Made by a program: the position numbers and the translations under genes. 64,000 bases of DNA from the NCBI GenBank assembly GCA_964016885.1, contig OZ024743.1, positions 116,312,001-116,376,000 of the forward strand. Reading direction: 5' to 3'. Within the stretch, counting starts at the first letter, position 1, and each line of letters begins with the position of its first letter. The notes under the pieces were generated by a model. The model did no database searches, was not told where the DNA came from, and was given only the letters and a program-made list of their open reading frames with translations. Positions 13,371-55,448 of the stretch are shown piece after piece. Source of the stretch: Eledone cirrhosa. Taxonomy: Eukaryota.

Positions 13371-15033
13371 TAAAAAACATGGTGTTTTTATTAAATATGG
13401 ATTTGAAAACAAAATTTACGAAATATTCCTTAAATGTTGTTTTCAAATCCATATTTAATAAAAACACAATATTTTTTTATCCATTCTGACGAAACAGATT
13501 TAGCAATTACCAAGTGCGTTACTGGTAAATGAAATAATAATCTTATTTTGTTTATTATATAGCTAAAAATATATATATATATATATATATACATAATCAA
13601 TTTATATAATTTAACAACCCCATATATATATATATATACAATTAAGTTAAAAATGTACATCCACATATGTATACTGAAATACTAGTATGCATATGAATAC
13701 ACACACGTATACATATGTAGATGTACCGAGTTTTTTCACTGGTCACTTTACTGTGAGTGTCCAGCTATTCTGTATGTAAACACAGACAAACCGGTTTTTA
13801 GAGTCATACTGGTTTTTGAGGAAACACCTTTCCTCTATTCTCCAGAAAGCCAGACAAGGAATATTGAACTAGTTTCGTTGTTGTTACAACTCATCAGCAA
13901 TATTTACCTATCTTCCGGCCTTTCTAGAGAATCGTAAAAGCACATATCGTTATATGCTTTTTCTATGAAAATTAGTAGTGGGCAGACTAATTTGCATAGA
14001 GCGTGAGTACGTACCGGTTCAACGGAGACGATAAAAACGAATAACGAAACGAAATTAAATTTCGCTTCGTTTGTAACTCACTTTTGTATGACTGACGCTT
14101 AAACAATTAAGTTAAAAATGTACATCCACATATGTATACTGAAATACTAGTATGCATATGAATACACACACGTATACATGTGTATATGTACCGAGTTTTT
14201 TTCACTGGTCACTTTACTGTGAGTGTCCAGCTATTCTGTATGTAAACACAGACAAACCGGTTTTTAGAGTCATACTGGTTTTTGAGGAAACACCTTTCCT
14301 CTATTCTCCAGAAAGCCAGACAAGGAATATTGAACTAGCTTCGTTGTTGTTACAACTCATCAGCAATATTTACCTATCTTCCGGCCTTTCTAGAGAATCG
14401 TAAAAGCACATATCGTTATATGCTTTTTCTATGAAAATTAGTAGTGGGCAGACTAATTTGCATAGAGCGTGAGTACGTACCGGTTCAACGGAGACGATAA
14501 AAACGAATAACGAAACGAAATTAAATTTCGCTTCGTTTCTAACTCACTTTTGTATGACTGACGCTTAAACAATTAAGTTAAAAATGTACATCCACATATG
14601 TATACTGAAATACTAGTATGCATATGAATACACACACGTATACATATGTAGATGTACCGAGTTTTTTCACTGGTCACTTTACTGTGAGTGTCCAGCTATT
14701 CTGTATGTAAACACAGACAAACCGGTTTTTAGAGTCATACTGGTTTTTGAGGAAACACCTTTCCTCTATTCTCCAGAAAGCCAGACAAGTAAAGTGACCA
14801 GAAAGCCACTCACAGTAAAGTGACCAGTGAAAAAACTCGGTACATCTACATATGTATACGTGTGTGTATTCATATGCATACTAGTATTTCAGTATACATA
14901 TGTGGATGTACATTTTTAACTTAATTGTTTAAGCGTCAGTCATACAAAAGTGAGTTACAAACGAAGCGAAATTTAATTTCGTTTCGTTATTCGTTTTTAT
15001 CGTCTCCGTTGAACCGGTACGTACTCACGCTCT

Positions 15034-15041
15034 ATGCAAAT
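15034..15041 (+). promoter_or_regulatory. Octamer motif ATGCAAAT in each monomer
   Basis: Exact octamer about 90 bp upstream of the HHR. Conserved in the related family at 23160-23167 (minus) and 23462-23469 (plus). Confidence 0.5.
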
Positions 15042-15126
15042 TAGTCTGCCCACTACTAATTTTCATAGAAAAAGCATATAACGATATGTGCTTTTACGAT
15101 TCTCTAGAAAGGCCGGAAGATAGGTA

Positions 15127-15171
15127 AATATTGCTGATGAGTTGTAACAACAACGAAACTAGTTCAATATT
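15127..15171 (+). ncRNA. Minimal type I hammerhead (also 15592-15636 plus; 13860-13904 and 14326-14370 minus)
   Basis: aatattg CTGATGA gttg-taacaa-caac GAAAC ta GTT caatatt. 7-bp stem I, palindromic AACTAGTT stem III. Confidence 0.9.
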
Positions 15172-15687
15172 CCTTGTCTGGCTTTCTGGAGAATAGAGGA
15201 AAGGTGTTTCCTCAAAAACCAGTATGACTCTAAAAACCGGTTTGTCTGTGTTTACATACAGAATAGCTGGACACTCACAGTAAAGTGACCAGTGAAAAAA
15301 CTCGGTACATCTACACATGTATACGTGTGTGTATTCATATGCATACTAGTATTTCAGTATACATATGTGGATGTACATTTTTAACTTAATTGTTTAAGCG
15401 TCAGTCATACAAAAGTGAGTTAGAAACGAAGCGAAATTTAATTTCGTTTCGTTATTCGTTTTTATCGTCTCCGTTGAACCGGTACGTACTCACGCTCTAT
15501 GCAAATTAGTCTGCCCACTACTAATTTTCATAGAAAAAGCATATAACGATATGTGCTTTTACGATTCTCTAGAAAAGCCGGAAGATATGTAAATATTGCT
15601 GATGAGTTGTAACAACAACGAAACTAGTTCAATATTCCTTGTCTGACTTTCTGGAGAATAGAAAATTTAATTTCGTTTCGTTATTCG

Positions 15688-15729
<42 letters not shown>

Positions 15730-21745: not shown

Positions 21746-21796
21746 AAAAATATATATATATGTATGTGTGTATATATATATATATATGTGTGTGTG

Positions 21797-22800
21797 TGAC
21801 TACCCTTCCAAACACCCTAACAATAGACTACCAGAATTAGACAAAACCTACCCTTTTAAGAAAACCCACTGTACTAATAGAAAATGTATTATATGTAAAG
21901 TAAACTCGCGGATAAACTGTAAAACTAGAAACGTAGTCTATAGCATAAGATGTACAGAGGGTACTTGCAGAAACATGACAACAACATACAAAGGCGAGAC
22001 AGCTCGTAGCATAGGTGAAAGGATAGACCAACACTGGGGGGAACTAAAAGGACGAAAAAACGGGTCAGTACTATACCAACATGCCAGACAACAACACGAC
22101 GGTAACATAGACAACATAGAAATTAAAATAATATCTAAACATAGAAATGGCCCAGCAGATAGGCAAATCAGAGAGGCCAGTGAAATAGAACTTAGAAGGC
22201 CAAAGCTAAACAGAAAAATGAATGGAATAACAACAACACGCAAACAAAAAATACTGACCTAAGAGAAGTATTAATAAATAAATAAATAAATCATACACAA
22301 GCACAATAACAACAAACACATATAAACACACACTAGTAAACTAAGATAGAATACAATAACCAATACACAGTCACCCAAACACGAACACACATCAAACACT
22401 ATACACACACGCAAACGCATGCACAGAGAAGACAAGAATAAATAAATAAATAAATAAACAAACTAAATAAAGATGGCGTAGGCATACAATACAACAGGAG
22501 GAAACATAATAGCACCACTGACGATGTTGACGATGATGCGATGTTGCAACGAAAGAACTTTGCTATATATTTGTGTTTGTGTCTATATTATATCTCTATT
22601 TTTGACCGTTGGTCAGTCAATGGTAACATTGACGATCGAATATTTTAAATTAACTGATATAAAAGATACAGAAGCGAAAACCAACCAAACAGTGAGTGTG
22701 TTCCGTTATTAATTCTGGCAATATTATTACACAAATATGACCCTTCCCAAGTATAACAAAGTATAACACGATTTCATATAAAAAACCTCTCAAAACTAAT
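21797..22800 (+). mobile_element. Internally deleted copy of the Naiad-like PLE at 37490-40838
   Basis: DYPSKHPNNRLP is joined directly to KTYPFKKTHCTNRKCIIC...YKGET, followed by the same pLTR. Confidence 0.9.
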
Positions 22801-22809
22801 ATATATATA

Positions 22810-23836
22810 TATAAGTATGTATACGTACATACATATATGTATACAGACGTACAGTAGTATGTATGTATATATACATGCACATATATATATATATATATAT
22901 ATGTACGTATGGATTCACCGAACATTTATTATAATTGTTTCTACTTTAGGCACAAGGCCAGTGTTTGTAAACAAACATCCCGAATTAAGCCGTACAGAGT
23001 CTAGCAACCATCGTTGCCCATTTGTTCAACACTGACAAAGGAACGCTGTACTAGTTTCAAGCTTATTAGCTATCGTCAGCAACGTATACCCTCCTGCCAG
23101 ATGGTTGAACGTCTGAAAGTATATAATTTCCTTATGCATATTAACGACTGAGCAGCCTAATTTGCATATCGAGGGAGATAATGGGCCGATGGTTAATAGA
23201 CACTGTACGGCTTAATTCGGGATGTTTGTTTACAAACAGACAGAGCATTATAATAAATGTTCGATGAATCCATACGTACATATATATATGTGTGTGCATG
23301 TATGTATATATATATATATATATACTACTGTACGCCTGTATACATATGTACGTATACCTACTCATATTTAAGTAACAGCTGTACTAAAATTGAGAAATTA
23401 AATTTCGTTTCATTTTTTTCGTTTATCGTTCTCGGTACCCCGGCCGATTAACTCACTCGATATGCAAATTAGGCTGCTCAGCCATTAATATGCATAAGGA
23501 AAGTATATACTTTCAGATGTTCAACCATCTGACAGGAAGGTATACGTTGCTTGAAACTAGTAGAGGGTTCCTTTGTCAGTGTTGAACAAATGAGCAACAA
23601 TGGTTGCTAGACACTGTACGGCTTAATTCGGGATGTTTGTTTACAAACAGACCGAGCATTATAATAAATGTTCGGTGAATACATACGTACATATATATAT
23701 GTGTGCATGTATGTATATATATATACATACTACTGTACTTTTGTATACATATATGTATGTACGTATACATACTTATATTTAAGTAACAGCCGTACTAAGA
23801 ATGAAAAATGAAATTTCGTTTCATTTTTTCCCGTTT
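22810..23836. repeat. Second retrozyme-like fold-back/tandem family (about 410-430-bp monomer)
   Basis: 22810-23180 is inverted against 23190-23836. Tandem landmarks at 23199 and 23610. A further fragment lies at 29270-29445. Confidence 0.8.
23044..23084 (-). ncRNA. Minimal type I hammerhead
   Basis: Reverse complement: cgttg CTGACGA tagct-aata-agctt GAAAC ta GTA cagcg. Confidence 0.82.
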
Positions 23837-23860
23837 ATATATATATATATATATATATAT

Positions 23861-30939: not shown

Positions 30940-33900
30940 CTACAGGCGCATGATCAGAGTAGGCCCACTCACGCGGGCCATTCTCGCCACATTCACCCAC
31001 CTTTCAGTAAATGTACTGGGGGGCAGCACTTCTCTCTCCACCCTCACCTTCCTTTCCAAGTGAAACTTGAAGAAGTTGATGAGGGATTGGCCGAAGAGAA
31101 AAGTGTCTGTCTTCAGTCCTTTCAACCTGGTCCACCATGCAACCTCTTTCGCTACTGCCACCAGGCAGAGGAAAATTGCCTGCCCTTCCTGACCAAAAGA
31201 AGGCGGCGGGTCAATCTTCACTATGGACTCGGACGATAGCCGGATCCGTTCTACACGCGACAATAGCTGTTCGACATAACCCCACAAGTCAGCAATGCAC
31301 GGACACTGGACGAGTGCGTGCAGAACGGTTTCGTCGCTCTGCGCGCATCTCGGGCAGGTTCGTCTGACAGCACTTCCGTGCCTGTAGAGTTTATCCCGAA
31401 CCGGCAGCGCCCCCCAGTAGCACTGCCAAGCGAGGGATTTCTGGAAGTTATCCATCGTCCCCGGCTCGAAAGTCCCCCGGAACATACTGGTCAGTTCTAC
31501 TTCGTTGACGCCTAGAGCCTCTCCTAGTACGTCATCGTACTTGCCCTCACTAATCCTCTATAGAAATCTTGAGTGGAAGTTCCACTGACCGCATTGCCCA
31601 CCTTGCAGAGTGCAGTGAGCGCCTGGCAACATTCCAGATGCCAGTCGCCCAGTCTCGGTCTCTTCTTGACCCAGGACTGCAGCTCAGTCAAAGAGATGAG
31701 CTGCGGAAAGGCCCGTCTAACAAACGGCGACCACACCTGTTCACCGTTTAGGCAAAATATCTGGAGATGTCGCAGCCTCAACGCATGTCTGCGCATCATT
31801 AGCCACGGCATGCCCAGCCCTCCACGAAGAGGGTGCTAGCAGCAGATGGACCGCCTCACCAACGGGATCCGTCCCCTCCACATAAATTTGAAAAGGAGCC
31901 GTTCCAAATTGGCGAGGCGTGGACGTGAGCAAGGCACGACGGTCAGGCGGTAGTAGATGACGGACGCGATGTACGCGTTCGCCACCTCCGCCCGCCCTTT
32001 CAGTGATAGCTTTCTCTCAGCCCATTTCTGGGTGAGGTTGGCTATCCTGCTCGTCACCTCGTCCCAATTCTTATCCACCTGGAGGTCAGGTCCGAACCAA
32101 ACCCCGAGCAACTTTACCGGTCCGTCTGTCCAGCGCCCAACGACGCTGTTGGACGGCATGGACTTGCCTCTCCAGGTGCCGAGCTGCAAGCCCACCGACT
32201 TTTCCGGGTTAAGTTTTGCTCCCGTCAACCTTTCATTTTCCTCCAAATGGGTGCGGATCACCTCGATTTCCGAGGTGTCCGACACCATCACGGTGATGTC
32301 GTCCGCATAAGCGGACGCAGCCTTTCTGCGTCCCGGTTCGAGCGGGATGCCCTGCAACAACTCCAGCTTCCGCAGTAGAGGCTCAAGAGTCAATACGTAC
32401 AGAAGTGAGGAGAGAGGGCGCCCTTGACGGACCGATCGAGAGATCTGAAACGGTTCCGAGAGGTGGCCATTAACTTTGACCACCGAGCAGATGCCGCTGT
32501 ACATTGCAACGATCCAGCTTCTGAAGACGGGGCCGAAGCCAGCCGCCTCGAGGACAGCCTCCAAGTACCGATGGTCGACCCTATCGAATGCTTTCGATTG
32601 ATCTAAATTGATCAGAGCCCCACCGAAGCCAGGTTTGCACCCAACCCTCTCTATGATGTATCGCATGAGGTGGAAGTTGTCGTGTATGGACCTGGTTGGG
32701 ATTGCACAAGTTTGCGCCTCCCCAACAAAATCTTTGACGACCAGCGCCAACCTTTTCGCTAACACCTTGGCCAAAATCTTAAACTCTGTGTTGAGCAGGG
32801 TTATGGGCCTGAAATTATCTAGTGTGTCCCTCTTGTTCTCGTCTTTCCTTATCAGCGTCACTACGCCACGGCTCACAGAACTGGGAATGCTCCCGTTCTG
32901 CTGCCAGTTGCAGTAGAGCGCTTCGAGGAGATCGGAGAACAAGTCTGGCATATTTACGTAAAGCTCGTAGGGGAGACCATCCAAACCGGGTAACTTGCGA
33001 CTCGAGCAGCCGACAAGGGCGTCCTGAATTTCGACTGATGTTATCGGCTCTTCGCAGCGCTCAGCGTCGGCCGTCGAGAGGCGTGGCAAGCCGTCGAGGT
33101 AGGGACTGAAGTCCGCCGCCGTCTCCGACTCACCCATCTTCCCGAACAGTCGAGCAAAGTGCTGGCGAAAGGCCTCACACATCTGCTTGGAATCGCTCAG
33201 TTCGTGTCCATCTCGATCCGTCAAAGACCGAATTGTGGTTTTATTTCCACGCTGCGTCTCTGCAAAGCAAGCCCATCGGGCAGCTTTGGTTCCCTCGTTC
33301 CTCAGAGCACGCGCCTTAGCTCTGACAATGCAACCTTCGTGTTTCGCATTGAAGAAATGGTCTAGTGCCATCTCGCCGCTAGCACGTCTGTTGCAATGCC
33401 ACTACAAATAGCCTCGTCTAACTTAGCTATCAGCCCCTCCTCCTTTCTATTTTTCTCTATTGCTACTTCTTTGCTAAATCCTATCGAGGTTGCTCTAATC
33501 TCTCTTTTCAGAGCCACCCACCACCTGTTGTTGACAACCCCACCTGTCAACTTTTGCTTAACTAAGTTGTTGACCCGGTCCCTGTAAGCTTTACGTGCCG
33601 GAAACGACATGTTTAGCTTCCAGTAGCTAGGTCCTAACCTACGTGTCTTATCTAGGTCGACCATACAGATCACAAGCTTGTGATCTGAATAGGCAACCGT
33701 TTTAAAATGTGGACATCCTACACTATTTCTATCTCTTTTCCTAATGAAAATCCTATCTATGTACGATCTAGATGACCCTATGCGATTGGTCCAGGTCCAT
33801 ACTGGCTCATTAGGGAAATCTAGTCGGTACCTGTCAGACAGTTGAAACTGGCTGATCAGGTACTTGAGGCTTTTGCATCCCCCGCTCCTATCAGATACTC

Positions 33901-34357
33901 CCACACAATCCCAGCGTGCTTCTAAGATGCCATTCCAATCCCCTATTAACAGTAAAGGGCGAGACGTAAGCAGAAAGTTTTCCAGGCGCCTAAAGAAGTC
34001 CAGCCGACCGGCCCCAGTAGGGGCGTAGACGGCCACCAGTCTAAAGGCACCACCTTCGCCATTGCTCACGTCCAGGACCACCAACTTTCCGTCAGGATCC
34101 CGGAAGATTGACCTTACCTCGAGATCCAGACATTTCCTAAACAGCACAGCCACTCCACCTCCCATTCCCGGCCGACTAACAGATGCAAAGATCTGATAAT
34201 CGTCGAAAATCGGCGCCAGTGCGCGTGTGTCGGAAATTCTGGTCTCGCTGATGGCAATTACATCCATTCCTAGTGACCTGAGGTCGTTGAGCAAGTGACC
34301 TTGCTTCCAGGGCGACCCCAGGCCACGAACATTTAAACTTCCTACTCTTATGGCCAT
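30940..34357 (-). pseudogene. LINE ORF2: APE endonuclease, reverse transcriptase, C-terminal Cys/His domain
   Basis: SLNVRGL, GDWN, SDH; PGLDGLP, NFRPITLLN, DQSKAFDRV, YADD; CPRC..ETVLHALVQC. Frameshifts at about 33370 and 31525, in-frame TAG at 31836-31838. Confidence 0.93.
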
Positions 34358-34386
34358 GCTGGCAGGATGAATGGGAGAGGAAAGGT

Positions 34387-36297
34387 TTACTTACCTTCCG
34401 GGGTCTTGTGAAGGTCGGGTGGTTCGACCTCCATGGTTTGTGGGGTTTCTTTTGGGAACCCCTTTAATAGTCTTGAAGTGGGTTTTACGTTCGGGGTTCC
34501 CACATCCCGAGGAAAGCTCTTTCGAATTTCTTTGTATGAAGCGAGCGACATTCGCATCAGAAGCAAATTATCTGGTACGCGAAATGTGCTCGCTTCAAAT
34601 GTTTCCCCCTCTTTTTCGATGTTTGTGCTTCGTGCTACATGGGCCATCAATTCCTTGTTGGCCCTTCTGGCAAGCACGAAGTTTTTAATGTTTTGTTGCT
34701 CGGGTTTTATTTGTTCGTGTGATTGTGGTGGTGATAGCTTTGTTAGTGTTGTTTCTATTGTGTCTGCGTTTGTTGTGGGTGGGGTGTCTGTAGTTTCTGA
34801 TGTTTGTGTGTCTATTTGTTCTTGTGTCTGTTTAGCTTGTTTGCGTTTGGGGGATTTTGGTGGTTGTGTTGGTGATGCTGTGGGGAAAATGTTTGTGTGG
34901 GTGGTGTGTGTATTTTTTTTTGTGGGGGTGTTTGTGCTTTGTGGATTGCTTTTTTTTTTGTGTTTTGTTTTTTGTATTTTGGGGGACTTTGGTTTTCCCT
35001 CATCTTCACTGCTGGAGGATGAGGGGTCTGTGGCTGTGAGCGTGTTTGTGTCTGAGTGAGTGTTTATGTTCTTGTTCGTGTGTGTATTTTGGGGGGGAGG
35101 GGGAATGGGAGAGCTTTCCTCGTTTCCCCCCTGGGTGTGCAATTTTGGTGGTTCCATTGTTGACGGTGTTGCTGGTGGTCCTTGTCCCGGCGTCGCCAGC
35201 AGTGGAATCTTTCGACCCCTTGCGCTTTTCGGCAGTTGAGGGCAGAAGGCTCGCAAGTGTGTCGTTTCCCCACAAAGGAAACAATGCGGCCTTTTGCCCT
35301 CAGTCATTATATGCAACACCCTCCCGTTTTGGAGGCGGATGTGGTCCGGGATTGCTTTTACGTTTTCGGGTCTGATTTGGAGCAGTATCTCCAGATCAAC
35401 CCCGGACCAGTCGTCCCTGGCAGTTCTCGTTGCCTCTACCGGGACTGTATCCGTTCCTTCCACGATTACGCAACCCAGGAACCACCACATATCAAGTCCT
35501 GGTGGAATCCTGGAAATGCGCACACGTGCTATTCGTTTTCCCATGTGGGAGGGGTACATTATGACCTTGCTGGTTTTGCAAGGGGTCATTGAATGCTTCA
35601 CAGCGAGGGCTTCAGACTTGAACAGCACCGAAACGGTGCCGTATTGCCTGCCCCTCTCTATGAAGTCTGTGTCCTCTCTGATGTATTTCAGTGCGGCTTC
35701 TATATCAGCTTGGGCGATTATCGCTGCCCTCTTTGTCTCTACTGAGATGCATCTGAAATGCACCGTTCTTTTTTCCACTGCCTCAATGGCTTCTGCCGGG
35801 ACAGTTAAGTTTGCTCAGGTCTGCTCTTGATTTATGATTTTCCAGGCCTGGGCCAACTTTTCCTCTCTGTTGGTTAAGTGGATGCTGTAGCATGGTCTCC
35901 TTTTAGCCGCTGCCACAGCAGCGAAGGTGTTCTTGTTGGTGTTGTCACTGTTGTTGTTCTTGTTGGTGTTGCTGCTGCTATTGCTGTTGTTGTTCTCCCC
36001 TGTGTCGTGGTTAAACTCTGTGCTGTTGGCCTTGTTGGTGCTGCTGCTGTCGCTACTATTACTCTCTGTGCTGTTCGTTTTGTTGGTGCTCTCGCTATTA
36101 CCACCTTCTGCGCTGTTCGGCTTGTTGGTGTTGGTGTTGTCGCTGTTACCACCTTCCGCGCCGCTCGGCCCGTTGGTGCTGGCACTGTCGCTGCTCACAC
36201 TCGTGCTGATGGCGCTCCTCGCCCCACCTCTCCTCTCAACGCTCAAGTCGCCGTTGCACGACAGCAGACCCGCCTCTAGGGGGCGTGGCTCCGCCAT
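34387..36297 (-). pseudogene. LINE ORF1 with CCHC zinc knuckle, one in-frame TGA
   Basis: ORFs 35815..36297 and 34387..35778 share a frame across TGA 35815-35817. CFLCGETTHLRAFC knuckle. Confidence 0.85.
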
Positions 36298-36696: not shown

Positions 36697-41073
<4,377 letters not shown>

Positions 41074-53199: not shown

Positions 53200-53259
<60 letters not shown>

Positions 53260-53417
53260 TTGGTGCTCTGAAATAGCGATATATATATGAATGTATATAT
53301 AGTGTATTTTGAAATACACTGTATGCTTAATTAAAAGCATTTCGAAGATCTTACGCTATTGTTTTAGAGTAGTGACAGTCTCACTTACTTTAAATTTTCA
53401 GCAAACAGGGGAGATAA

Positions 53418-53462
53418 AGCTGACAGAGCTCTGTTTCGTTCTGACTGGTACTTATCAAAGCC
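53418..53462 (-). ncRNA. Type I hammerhead, U3-A8 variant (also 53738-53782 minus, 56178-56222 plus)
   Basis: Plus-strand copy: gact TTGAAAA gtact-aatc-agtac GAAAC agtgctct GTC agct. Other copies have TTGATAA and palindromic ACAGAGCTCTGT. Confidence 0.78.
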
Positions 53463-54154
53463 AAGTACTCCACCTCTTTGCTGAAAATCATGAATGTTTG
53501 ATTCTTATAGAATTCTAGTAATAATCAGGAACTGATTATACAGAGCGGTTGCCAGTCAAGCAGAAATTGAAAAGTAGAATTGGTGCTCTGAAATAGCGAT
53601 ATATATATGAATGTATATATAGTGTATTTTCAAATACACTCTATGCTTAATTAAAAGCATTTCGAAGACCTTGCGCTATTGTTTTAGAGTAGTGACAGTC
53701 TAACTTACTTTAAATTTTCAGCAAACAGGGGAGATAAATCTGACAGAGCTCTGTTTCTCACTGATTGGTACTTATCAAAGCCAAGTACTCCACCTGTTTG
53801 CTGAAAATCATGAATATTTGATTCTTATAGAATTCTAGTAATGATCAGGAACTGAGTATACAGAGCGGTTGCCGGTCAAGCAGAAATTGAAAATTTTAAT
53901 TGGTGCTCTGAAATAGCGATATATATATGAATGTAATATAGTATTTACGTATCGAGAAAGAGAAAAAAAGGGGGGATAGGTGATACATATAGTTATTTGC
54001 CAAGTAGCGTATGCCAAAGGTGCTCGATACTAGTGCCGGCAGTATTAGATATTCGAAGTGTTAATATTTAGTGGGCTAGAGAGTTAGCAGAGCGTAAGCA
54101 CGTGGGAAAGTAAAAATCGGAGAATAGACCGTTAAAACATGTTTATTTAAAATA

Positions 54155-54196
54155 TCACCTACGTACGTTTCGCCCAGTTGGGCTTCTCAAGGGCAT
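54155..54196 (-). ncRNA. Minimal hammerhead, U3-A8 variant
   Basis: Reverse complement: cc TTGAGAA gccc-aact-gggc GAAAC gtac GTA gg. Stem I is short. Confidence 0.72.
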
Positions 54197-54476
54197 AAAT
54201 AATCACAAGTGTTCGGAAAGAGTTTTGGGGGTTAAATCTACATCAAGATTCATTGCTCGCAAAAATATCTTGTTTTGATTTTGCAGCAGGTCAAGGGAGG
54301 TAACTCTGGCCGGTGTTAGGGCAGTCTTTCCCGGATAATTTTTTTTTTTTTTTTTTTGCCGCATCCGTTTGTCTGAGGCTGGGTCTGGTATGCAAGGATT
54401 GTTTTCTGGGTGTTATTTTGCAGCGCCTGCCCGCCGGGGTGTTAAGACTTGTTGCAGGGAGATCCAGTGTACTATT

Positions 54477-55448
54477 TCACCCTTCATCCTTAACCCATCT
54501 AAAGAAGGAAATTTTTAAGCGATGTGTACAACTTATCGCTGTTTCAGCTCTGCTGTTGATGAGCTCGTGGGGTGCAGTTATGATGTGGTAGAGCTCCATG
54601 AGGCAAAGATCGCATTTCCTCCTGAAGTTGTACGGTGCAGCCCTGCCGACAATCTCCCAGTGCGTGGAGAAGCTGATGTTTGAGTCCTTTAGTGATGTGA
54701 TGTAGTCCGCGAGCGAAGTGGAGTGCCTTAGTTTTCTATTTGTGAAAGAGTGGAGATGTGTTCGAAACCTAATTTTGAACGGGCCGGAGGTGGCCCCTAT
54801 ATAATGTTTAACGCTATTGTGGCTAGTAATAGTGCATCTATATATAACCCTATCAGTCAAGCAGTATCCTCTAAGGGGGCAGCGTCCTCTGTCGCGGCAG
54901 TTGCAATTTCTGTCGCGGTTCCGTCTATTTCCCACGGTAAGGCTATCATTGTTGCTGCCTACGTTGTTACCTACGCTACCGCAGCCGTCGTAAGCACAAT
55001 TACAACCCACAGCACGCGGGATGGTGCGATTGTTATTCCGCACGGCATGTTCTGCATGTTCTCCAGTCACTTCGCGGTCATTCTGGTTGCGTCTGCGGAT
55101 GCCGTTGCCAAAACTATTGGATGCTGCCAGGGAGTTGTTAAGGCCGATATAGTTATTGTCAGGTGTAGGTGCGTCTGTGTCGAGGTGCTGTGTCTTGGTG
55201 ATCTTACTGTGGTTCGTTGTTCCTATGATGTCTGCTAGGTTAGGAGTAGTAGAGAAGGATATGTTTATATTGTTCCTATTAAGAATGTTTCTATACATAT
55301 GGTTGAGCGGGAAGTTCTTCTCTAAGGCTTCGAAGAATATCCGGGGTATGTTGGAGGCCACACTCCGAGAGTAGGGGGGGGGGGTGAAACCATAGGACGT
55401 TACGGTGGCGATTACGTGTCCTTGTACTTTTGCTACGGGTGGTTCCAT
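54477..55448 (-). pseudogene. PLE linker and GIY-YIG endonuclease (open 323 codons, 5'-truncated)
   Basis: PPYSRSV..KNFPLNH..ISFSTTPN, CNCRDRGRCPL..C, VIYRC...YIGAT, CDLCLME, CTHR. Confidence 0.9.

Follow-up and report, generated by a model that had tools for sequence, protein, structure and literature searches.

Host-type octamer-TATA signal ahead of the ribozyme in hammerhead retrozymes of Eledone cirrhosa: a candidate internalised promoter

The window, by which we mean the whole 64-kb stretch of Eledone cirrhosa DNA that was analysed, contains two insertions flanked by (TA)n, one of family A (13635-15694, unit of ~465 bp) and one of family B (22806-23838, unit of ~430 bp), both built as inverted/tandem arrays. 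Their features are the following:

13635..15694, no strand: family A insertion, an inverted pair of tandem arms with (TA)n on either side
13635..14792, minus strand: family A left arm, 2.5 units, terminating at the fixed end E2 (unit position 429) beside (TA)n
14807..15694, plus strand: family A right arm, 1.8 units, with an internal deletion (15662/15663) and the fixed end E1 (15663-15694) beside (TA)n
14968..15000, plus strand: internal copy of the 3'-end block, with which insertions finish at E1; 32 nt separate it from the 12-mer downstream
15033..15044, plus strand: 12-mer TATGCAAATTAG of family A, with the octamer at 15034-15041; the proximal elements of host U6 L096 and tRNA-Sec L158/L159 have the same sequence
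15031..15069, plus strand: predicted RNA hairpin of family A, the 12-mer forming the 5' arm (one mismatch), z -5.2
15076..15082, plus strand: weak TATA-like box of family A, 43 bp from the octamer
15106..15108, plus strand: predicted transcription start of family A, inferred from TATA +30/31 and U3 geometry
15127..15171, plus strand: minimal type I hammerhead of family A, core at 15134-15140, predicted cleavage after 15164
15498..15509, plus strand: 12-mer of the second plus unit of family A
15592..15636, plus strand: hammerhead of the second plus unit of family A, core 15599-15629
14453..14464, minus strand: 12-mer of the family A left arm; in the hammerhead of that unit GAAG replaces GAAA
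13987..13998, minus strand: 12-mer of the outer unit of the family A left arm
13867..13897, minus strand: hammerhead core of the outer unit of the family A left arm
22806..23838, no strand: family B insertion, minus arm 22806-23188 running to E2 and plus arm 23189-23838 running to E1, (TA)n on both sides
23461..23472, plus strand: 12-mer of the family B plus arm, with TATATA 42 bp on, at 23504-23509; 18 nt are missing from its hammerhead
23157..23168, minus strand: 12-mer of the family B inverted arm
23049..23079, minus strand: hammerhead core of family B, with a GUA triplet and U-U at the base of stem II

The octamer ATGCAAAT is the core of a 12-mer, TATGCAAAT(T/G)AG, which is followed downstream by a TATA-like box. 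Six of the eight exact octamers of the window fall inside the two elements (15034-15041, 15499 and 23462-23469 on the plus strand; 13990, 14456 and 23160 on the minus strand), and the eight matches are not above chance (6.2 expected). The hammerhead core pattern CTGANGA-N14-GAAAC-TA-GTH was found at 15134-15164, 15599-15629, 13867-13897 (-) and 23049-23079 (-), and the hammerhead is intact in three of four family A copies and one of two family B copies; an Rfam search of the 64-kb window at gathering thresholds gave no match. The family A hammerhead at 15127-15171 has a stem I of 7 bp, a stem II of 5 bp, a palindromic stem III and a GUU triplet (15162-15164), which is that of the main A subfamily, older subfamilies having GUC; together with the U-U at the stem II base of family B, this may mean that activity is low. 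Pairing as a dimer is favoured by the palindromic stem III, and the minimal hammerheads of Penelope pLTRs, which share this stem, are thought to work as dimers (PMC4209133, available text).

The first-pass annotation had placed an exact octamer 75-95 bp upstream of a GAAAC-TA-GTH hammerhead in both families, and the gaps are indeed 92 bp (family A) and 80 bp (family B). The complete module that it described is present in family A, but no single family B copy in the window is whole: in the plus copy (23395-23835) a stretch of 18 nt with CTGACGA is missing, and the intact one lacks the upstream 'aaattaaatttcg' block. The 'aaatttaatttcgtttc...tttat' block, which had been counted as part of a promoter module, is the 3' end of the element. 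Moreover, the two families had been said to share little else, whereas 248 of 497 aligned columns are identical, a local match reaches 67% over 251 nt (E 1e-15), and A and B are one diverged lineage.

Other mobile elements are found nearby. Broken Penelope-like ORFs, with RT and GIY-YIG-like motifs recognised by eye, lie at 37472-40314 (+) and 21768-22800 (+), and the family B element sits within the TA tail of the latter fragment (21.8-22.8 kb). A 320-bp partial tandem beside a minus-strand GIY-YIG-like ORF (53255-55448) is probably a Penelope pLTR pair, and a fragmented LINE-like element, comprising ORF1, endonuclease and RT, occupies 30940-36297 (-).

Families A and B are non-LTR retrozymes with Penelope-type architecture. 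They match non-LTR retrozymes in every feature that can be tested from DNA: neither element has an ORF of 150 aa, and each tandem unit carries one type I hammerhead. Insertions consist of arms in which as many as 31 units follow one another head to tail, and most contain a single inversion. The 3' ends of the arms are fixed at E1 or E2 (38 of 42 arms in family A, 83 of 97 in family B), E1 lying 32-35 nt before the 12-mer and E2 another 56-69 nt upstream, and a TA repeat follows the arm end in 34/42 and 66/97 cases, respectively. Loose TA ends at 15396 and 15465 in contigs of four sequencing runs, none of them listed as RNA, agree with E2 and E1. The 5' ends are uniform round the unit (KS p 0.59, n=44 for A; p 0.56, n=106 for B), and in the same samples no pile-up was seen at the predicted start or cut site. 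This distribution gives no sign of a template with a fixed 5' end and fits a circle or a long multimer. Differences between opposite arms were 0.0 and 0.5 in the two clearest insertions, against at least 6 and at least 16 to other insertions, and 3.3 against 6 and 4.0 against 4 in two more; the insertion of the window was left out of this comparison because its terminal deletion distorts the value. The inverted truncated arm, the tail at a single end and the microsatellite target are all present, as described for Penelope-like insertions (PMC8557442, available text). One 19-unit family A array (L223-L224, C1, 375.63 Mb) has unit variants that recur every three to four units, either by later unequal exchange or from a multimeric template.

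Regarding an autonomous partner, the ends of A and B had no match among the Penelope copies sampled, and the tail of family E (see below) resembles that of one Penelope family to a degree reached by 20 of 1000 shuffles. Penelope ORFs beside A and B copies were rejected as partners, being separate insertions in common TA tracts. In one case (L319:2030-2205 / L323) a family E module directly joins an RT/GIY-YIG ORF that lacks its 5' part, possibly through a template switch; this fusion was likewise discarded as evidence of a partner, since it concerns only one of 30 copies, the other 29 relatives of the ORF having no attached module. The 12-mer is absent from the pLTRs of coding Penelope elements of the L091/L092 type, and from the hammerheads of the L091-type cluster (0/10).

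The octamer proved to be conserved above its flanks. In the consensuses of eight A/B subfamilies the 12-mer is the sole fully invariant 12-nt window (12/12), compared with 11/20 and 10/20 invariant positions in its flanks and 213/466 in the whole consensus. When a ninth consensus, dominated by the array L145, is added, the score falls to 10/12, tied with five other windows. From 42 insertions picked by their hammerhead alone, eight were truncated ahead of the 12-mer, and in the 34 unbiased insertions long enough to include it, it was intact in 29 and variant in five. Genome-wide, the hammerhead pattern gave 40,412 matches (control 20), the 12-mer combined with the hammerhead core 28,167 (control 2), and the same search without a base typical of A/B 1,952 (control 0).

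At least five hammerhead families carry the 12-mer. A pattern made from host promoters only, with no ribozyme part, returned 49 rows, namely 34 U6/tRNA-Sec, eight B variants (one checked by BLAST, the others by eye), six in the new families C and D, and one unassigned (CTGATGA at +93). We used only the identity of these matches and discarded their number as a sign of enrichment, since the reversed control gave 512. Family C comprises 1,290 candidates with a unit of ~390 bp and family D 724 candidates with a unit of ~357 bp; family E and decayed single copies of other families (L320, L321, L325) were found in a follow-up. As families C-E were found through the 12-mer, their carrying it reflects ascertainment. 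When A/B are compared with C, D and E, the best BLAST matches mostly consist of the 12-mer with the bases next to it. A structural scan of 1.3 Mb of fetched loci yielded 199 hammerheads, which we clustered; the 12-mer accompanies 131/155 hammerheads of A/B, 13/13 of E, 5/5 of D and 2/4 of C, but none of the ten tied to coding Penelope elements, none of the ten in four small clusters and one of two in one more. Many copies of family C (L227-L256) have a duplicated 12-mer, 41 bp apart. A metagenome scan covered 80 loci from at least 118 matches, five of which passed the stem check, a number compatible with chance beside common Penelope hammerheads; in the contigs L380, L384, L418 and L430 a plausible hammerhead follows the 12-mer after 80-110 nt, in L418 with a TATA box as well, which may be due to chance.

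Host small-RNA genes were located in the genome by Rfam family. The element TATG(C/G)(A/T)AAT(T/G)AG lies at -76 to -79 (octamer A) in the U6, U6atac, tRNA-Sec and MRP genes, with TATA at -30/-31, 46-48 bp from the element. Carriers of the 12-mer are U6 genes of three locus types, the best of the eight U6atac matches (1/8) and both full-score tRNA-Sec genes, and MRP served as out-of-sample confirmation; two further top U6 matches and all 12 low-ranked U6 matches examined lack it. Some members of the U6 array (L101-L107, C19) have an insertion of ~190 bp between TATA and +1, which displaces the 12-mer. U3 has a variant element, TATGTAAA(A/T)TAR, at -71 to -74 in 8 of 11 loci, the three without it being the lowest-scoring, and its distance to TATA is 42 bp in five of seven and 40 bp in two of seven. 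No octamer-type element was found at the 16 loci of U1/U2/U4/U5, 15 of which have R(T/C)CAG(T/C) at -56 to -59 with a spacer of ~27 to TATA. RNase P and 7SK (L361, L490) show the U1-like ATCAGT and not the U6-like 12-mer, at -67 and 33 bp before TATA in RNase P, and at -64 and 34 bp before TATA in 7SK, itself a weak match (45 bits).

A TATA-like box near -30 is present in all host small-RNA gene classes, and the distal element TTAYYTCCCTT at -257 to -288 is common to classes (RNase P has it twice). In both proximal-element classes, genes presumed to use Pol III have a spacer that exceeds that of presumed Pol II genes by 5-7 bp, the polymerase being assigned from other animals. In insects, too, the polymerase class goes with the spacing and with a few bases of the PSEA (PMC1761439, available text). 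Host U3 is probably transcribed by Pol II, judging by other animals, an internal T4 at +11 and a T7 after only one of eight intact genes. Since the 12-mer stands at -71 to -79 in host genes, the octamer is a proximal and not a distal element in this host, and the initial view of it as the snRNA distal element, which would lie ~200 bp upstream, is not supported.

One U6 gene (L096) and both tRNA-Sec genes have exactly the 12-mer of the retrozymes, which differs from the U3 element at one to three positions. A matrix built from six host sites scores family A at 21.2 bits and family B at 17-18 bits, within the leave-one-out range of the host sites themselves (12.9-27.9), the best U1/U2 score being 2.5; in the window it finds only the six element copies and two copies of one other site (15.9). 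Ungapped likeness to U3 promoters is modest, being reached by 305 (A), 16-24 (B), 4 (C) and 59 (E) of 1000 shuffles. The comparison with the host U1/U2/U6 PSE that had been proposed thus has a divided outcome: the sequence is of the U6 class and the spacing that of U3, but RTCAGT with TATA, the U1/U2 element, occurs in none of 12 monomer consensuses. The host distal element TTAYYTCCCTT is absent from the monomers as well.

The 12-mer is also a general high-affinity POU site, so that identity with host genes need not mean SNAPc. Plain promoters of Pol II that combine a POU site with TATA are known in the style of immunoglobulin and H2B genes. The retrozyme signal might be such a promoter, derived from a Penelope pseudo-LTR and operating with neither SNAPc nor snRNA-type 3' processing, and the lack of RTCAGT and of the distal element in the monomers would fit this, as would the single E module joined to a truncated RT/GIY-YIG ORF and the internal promoters that Penelope pLTRs contain (PMC8557442, available text). 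We nevertheless regard this origin as quite improbable, because the coding Penelope copies examined (29 of 30 relatives of the ORF, and the L091/L092-type pLTRs) are without the module and because position and spacing mirror those of the U3/U6-class genes of the host.

Spacing also bears on the choice of polymerase. The octamer-to-TATA distance is 43 bp in A, 42 in B, 42 in C (12/20 copies) and 43 in E (13/18), next to 40-42 bp in U3, and 47 bp in D (16/25), which alone lies in the host Pol III range of 46-48 bp; the order of 12-mer, then TATA, is that of the Pol III class. The hammerhead core follows ~88-105 nt from the octamer across families. Position TATA+30 is a purine in four families, at a distance of 26-28 nt upstream of the core in A, D and E and of 16 nt in B; in C it is a T, 20 nt upstream of the core. 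Units of A, B, C and D contain runs of T4-T7, at which Pol III would terminate ahead of the next promoter, a difficulty that is removed if the U3-like register of four families means Pol II. Our best reading is an internalised U3-like promoter, probably for Pol II, with a putative start ~25 nt upstream of the ribozyme.

A type-3 Pol III promoter would instead yield short linear hammerhead RNAs stopped at the first T-run, which may partner the dimeric ribozyme in trans, with long templates arising by leak-through or from other polymerases. The sequence of the 12-mer is nearest to that of U6/tRNA-Sec/MRP, the E1 end of family A coincides with a T5, and family D (L257-L286) combines exact U6 spacing with a G at the predicted +1, a long stem I and a T7 76 nt later, directly behind the ribozyme. 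Against this, the spacers of A, B, C and E are 3-6 bp below the host Pol III range, the T-free stretch is no longer than in shuffles (124-198 of 300), hence no depletion of T-runs as a Pol III signature, and 5' ends are not in excess at the start or cut site. Furthermore, transcripts ended by T5-T7 runs before the next promoter could not transmit that promoter. As a general account of the families, Pol III transcription is, in our opinion, the least probable of the explanations considered. Family D by itself is predicted to be a Pol III ribozyme unit of ~75 nt, its U6 spacing and T7 falling outside the U3/Pol II model.

The 12-mer might also be retained for reasons unrelated to transcription. 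In A, B, C and E, and to some extent in D, it pairs as the 5' arm of a predicted hairpin, with covariation between families, and RNA structure thus contributes to its conservation. The variant ATGCATAT, present in five of the six units of L145, perfects this pairing, one B subfamily with TGG for TAG retains a G-U pair, and the whole unit as a circle has a strong predicted fold (z -9.2, 30 shuffles). These observations would suit an element that a compact circle retains for its RNA structure or for recognition by the RT, transcription coming from read-through and the match to host promoters being a relic or a coincidence. However, the 5' arm is invariant while its partner is invariant at only 7/12 positions and a mismatch or bulge persists in every family; families unrelated to one another share 12-mer and TATA at host spacings and at a similar distance from the core; and the host-only pattern finds almost exclusively host genes and these repeats. 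We hold this explanation to be unlikely.

The self-promoting reading is preferred because the octamer is conserved beyond its flanks, is common to otherwise unlike hammerhead families and matches host promoters. The monomers of these retrozymes carry the octamer and TATA signal of the host, at U3-like spacing in A, B, C and E, and each unit would likely start its own transcript, probably by Pol II, ahead of the ribozyme; on sequence evidence we consider this somewhat more probable than the contrary. Such a host signal, shared at its spacing ahead of the ribozyme, makes own transcription likely instead of read-through. The parallel with newt satellite 2 drawn by the first-pass annotation accordingly stands as the best reading of the sequence in so far as self-promotion is concerned, but the octamer is not distal and the U1/U2 element is absent; its term 'replicon' was overstated, as the arrays look retrotransposed by Penelope-type machinery.

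The proposed cycle begins with the arrangement seen in the DNA: 42-43 bp separate the 12-mer from the TATA-like box, and the core follows the octamer after 88-101 nt. Transcription might start 16-28 nt before the core and pass the T-runs into the next unit. By analogy with known retrozymes, two hammerheads would pair via the palindromic stem III and excise one unit; cleavage would lose only a short leader, and the excised unit would hold the promoter of the next one. A host ligase could then circularise the unit. Finally, a Penelope-type RT/GIY-YIG protein may prime at E1 and E2 on a (TA)n target and run in circuits round the circle, which fits the observed anatomy, in which the 3' ends of the inverted tandem arms are fixed and their 5' ends random. 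By running round a circle, the RT would let the upstream promoter be inherited, although ordinary retroposition would lose it.

As a more speculative extension, which we put forward as possible yet doubtful, retrozymes captured a host octamer-TATA promoter, perhaps repeatedly, and the spacing picks the polymerase: four families would form circles from Pol II (U3-type) transcripts, while D would produce a T7-ended Pol III (U6-type) hammerhead RNA of ~75 nt able to act in trans, the host encoding the polymerase by a shift of 5-7 bp in two element classes.

Retrozymes are abundantly expressed, and the promoters of the newt and schistosome repeats are isolated old reports. The locus offers a precise candidate promoter (element, TATA and predicted +1) for five families and ~28,000 copies, and shows how a promoter that lies upstream can be passed on by a tandem or circular element. 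Host transcription could also be affected by the perfect POU-type sites with TATA, which number in the tens of thousands. As a by-product, the promoter map of host U6/U3/U1-class genes may be useful for guide-RNA expression tools. Our search of a largely non-subscription literature found nothing on these retrozyme families or on the promoter layout of the host.

Newt satellite 2 reportedly has the vertebrate octamer and PSE layout, and its promoter is said to drive a correctly 3'-processed snRNA. In Eledone, by contrast, the octamer is proximal (~-73) and accompanied by TATA, in the layout of host U3/U6-class genes and in several families. The schistosome hammerhead satellite is said to use a Pol III promoter of the gene-internal kind, unlike the upstream-type element described here, which is internalised by the tandem/circular organisation. 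The available text of PMC2220036 cites satellite 2 for an snRNA promoter used by Pol II (Coats et al., 1994) and the schistosome satellite for a promoter of its own (Ferbeyre, 1998); satellite 2 and our families would have in common a hammerhead tandem repeat with an in-unit snRNA-type promoter, which is here a computational prediction.

With Penelope-like elements (PMC4209133, PMC8557442, available text) the families share the minimal hammerhead, palindromic stem III, inverted 5'-truncated arm, tail and microsatellite target; they differ in having no ORF and a tail of 56-69 bp instead of 30-40, and the coding copies examined are without the 12-mer. Metazoan retrozymes seem to be promoterless and to rely on read-through according to a 2020 review (PMC7761336). 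As far as the available texts describe metazoan non-LTR retrozymes (Cervera and de la Pena, 2020, PMC7229834; Li et al., preprint 10.64898/2026.07.22.740005, with an invertebrate sample of three insects and one coral), they are likewise dispersed, non-coding tandem units of a few hundred bp with a type I hammerhead, found alongside Penelope-like elements. The elements of Eledone are distinguished from these by a host small-RNA promoter signal in every unit of at least five families, and by the inverted arms, two fixed ends and (TA)n targeting that tie A and B to Penelope-type integration.
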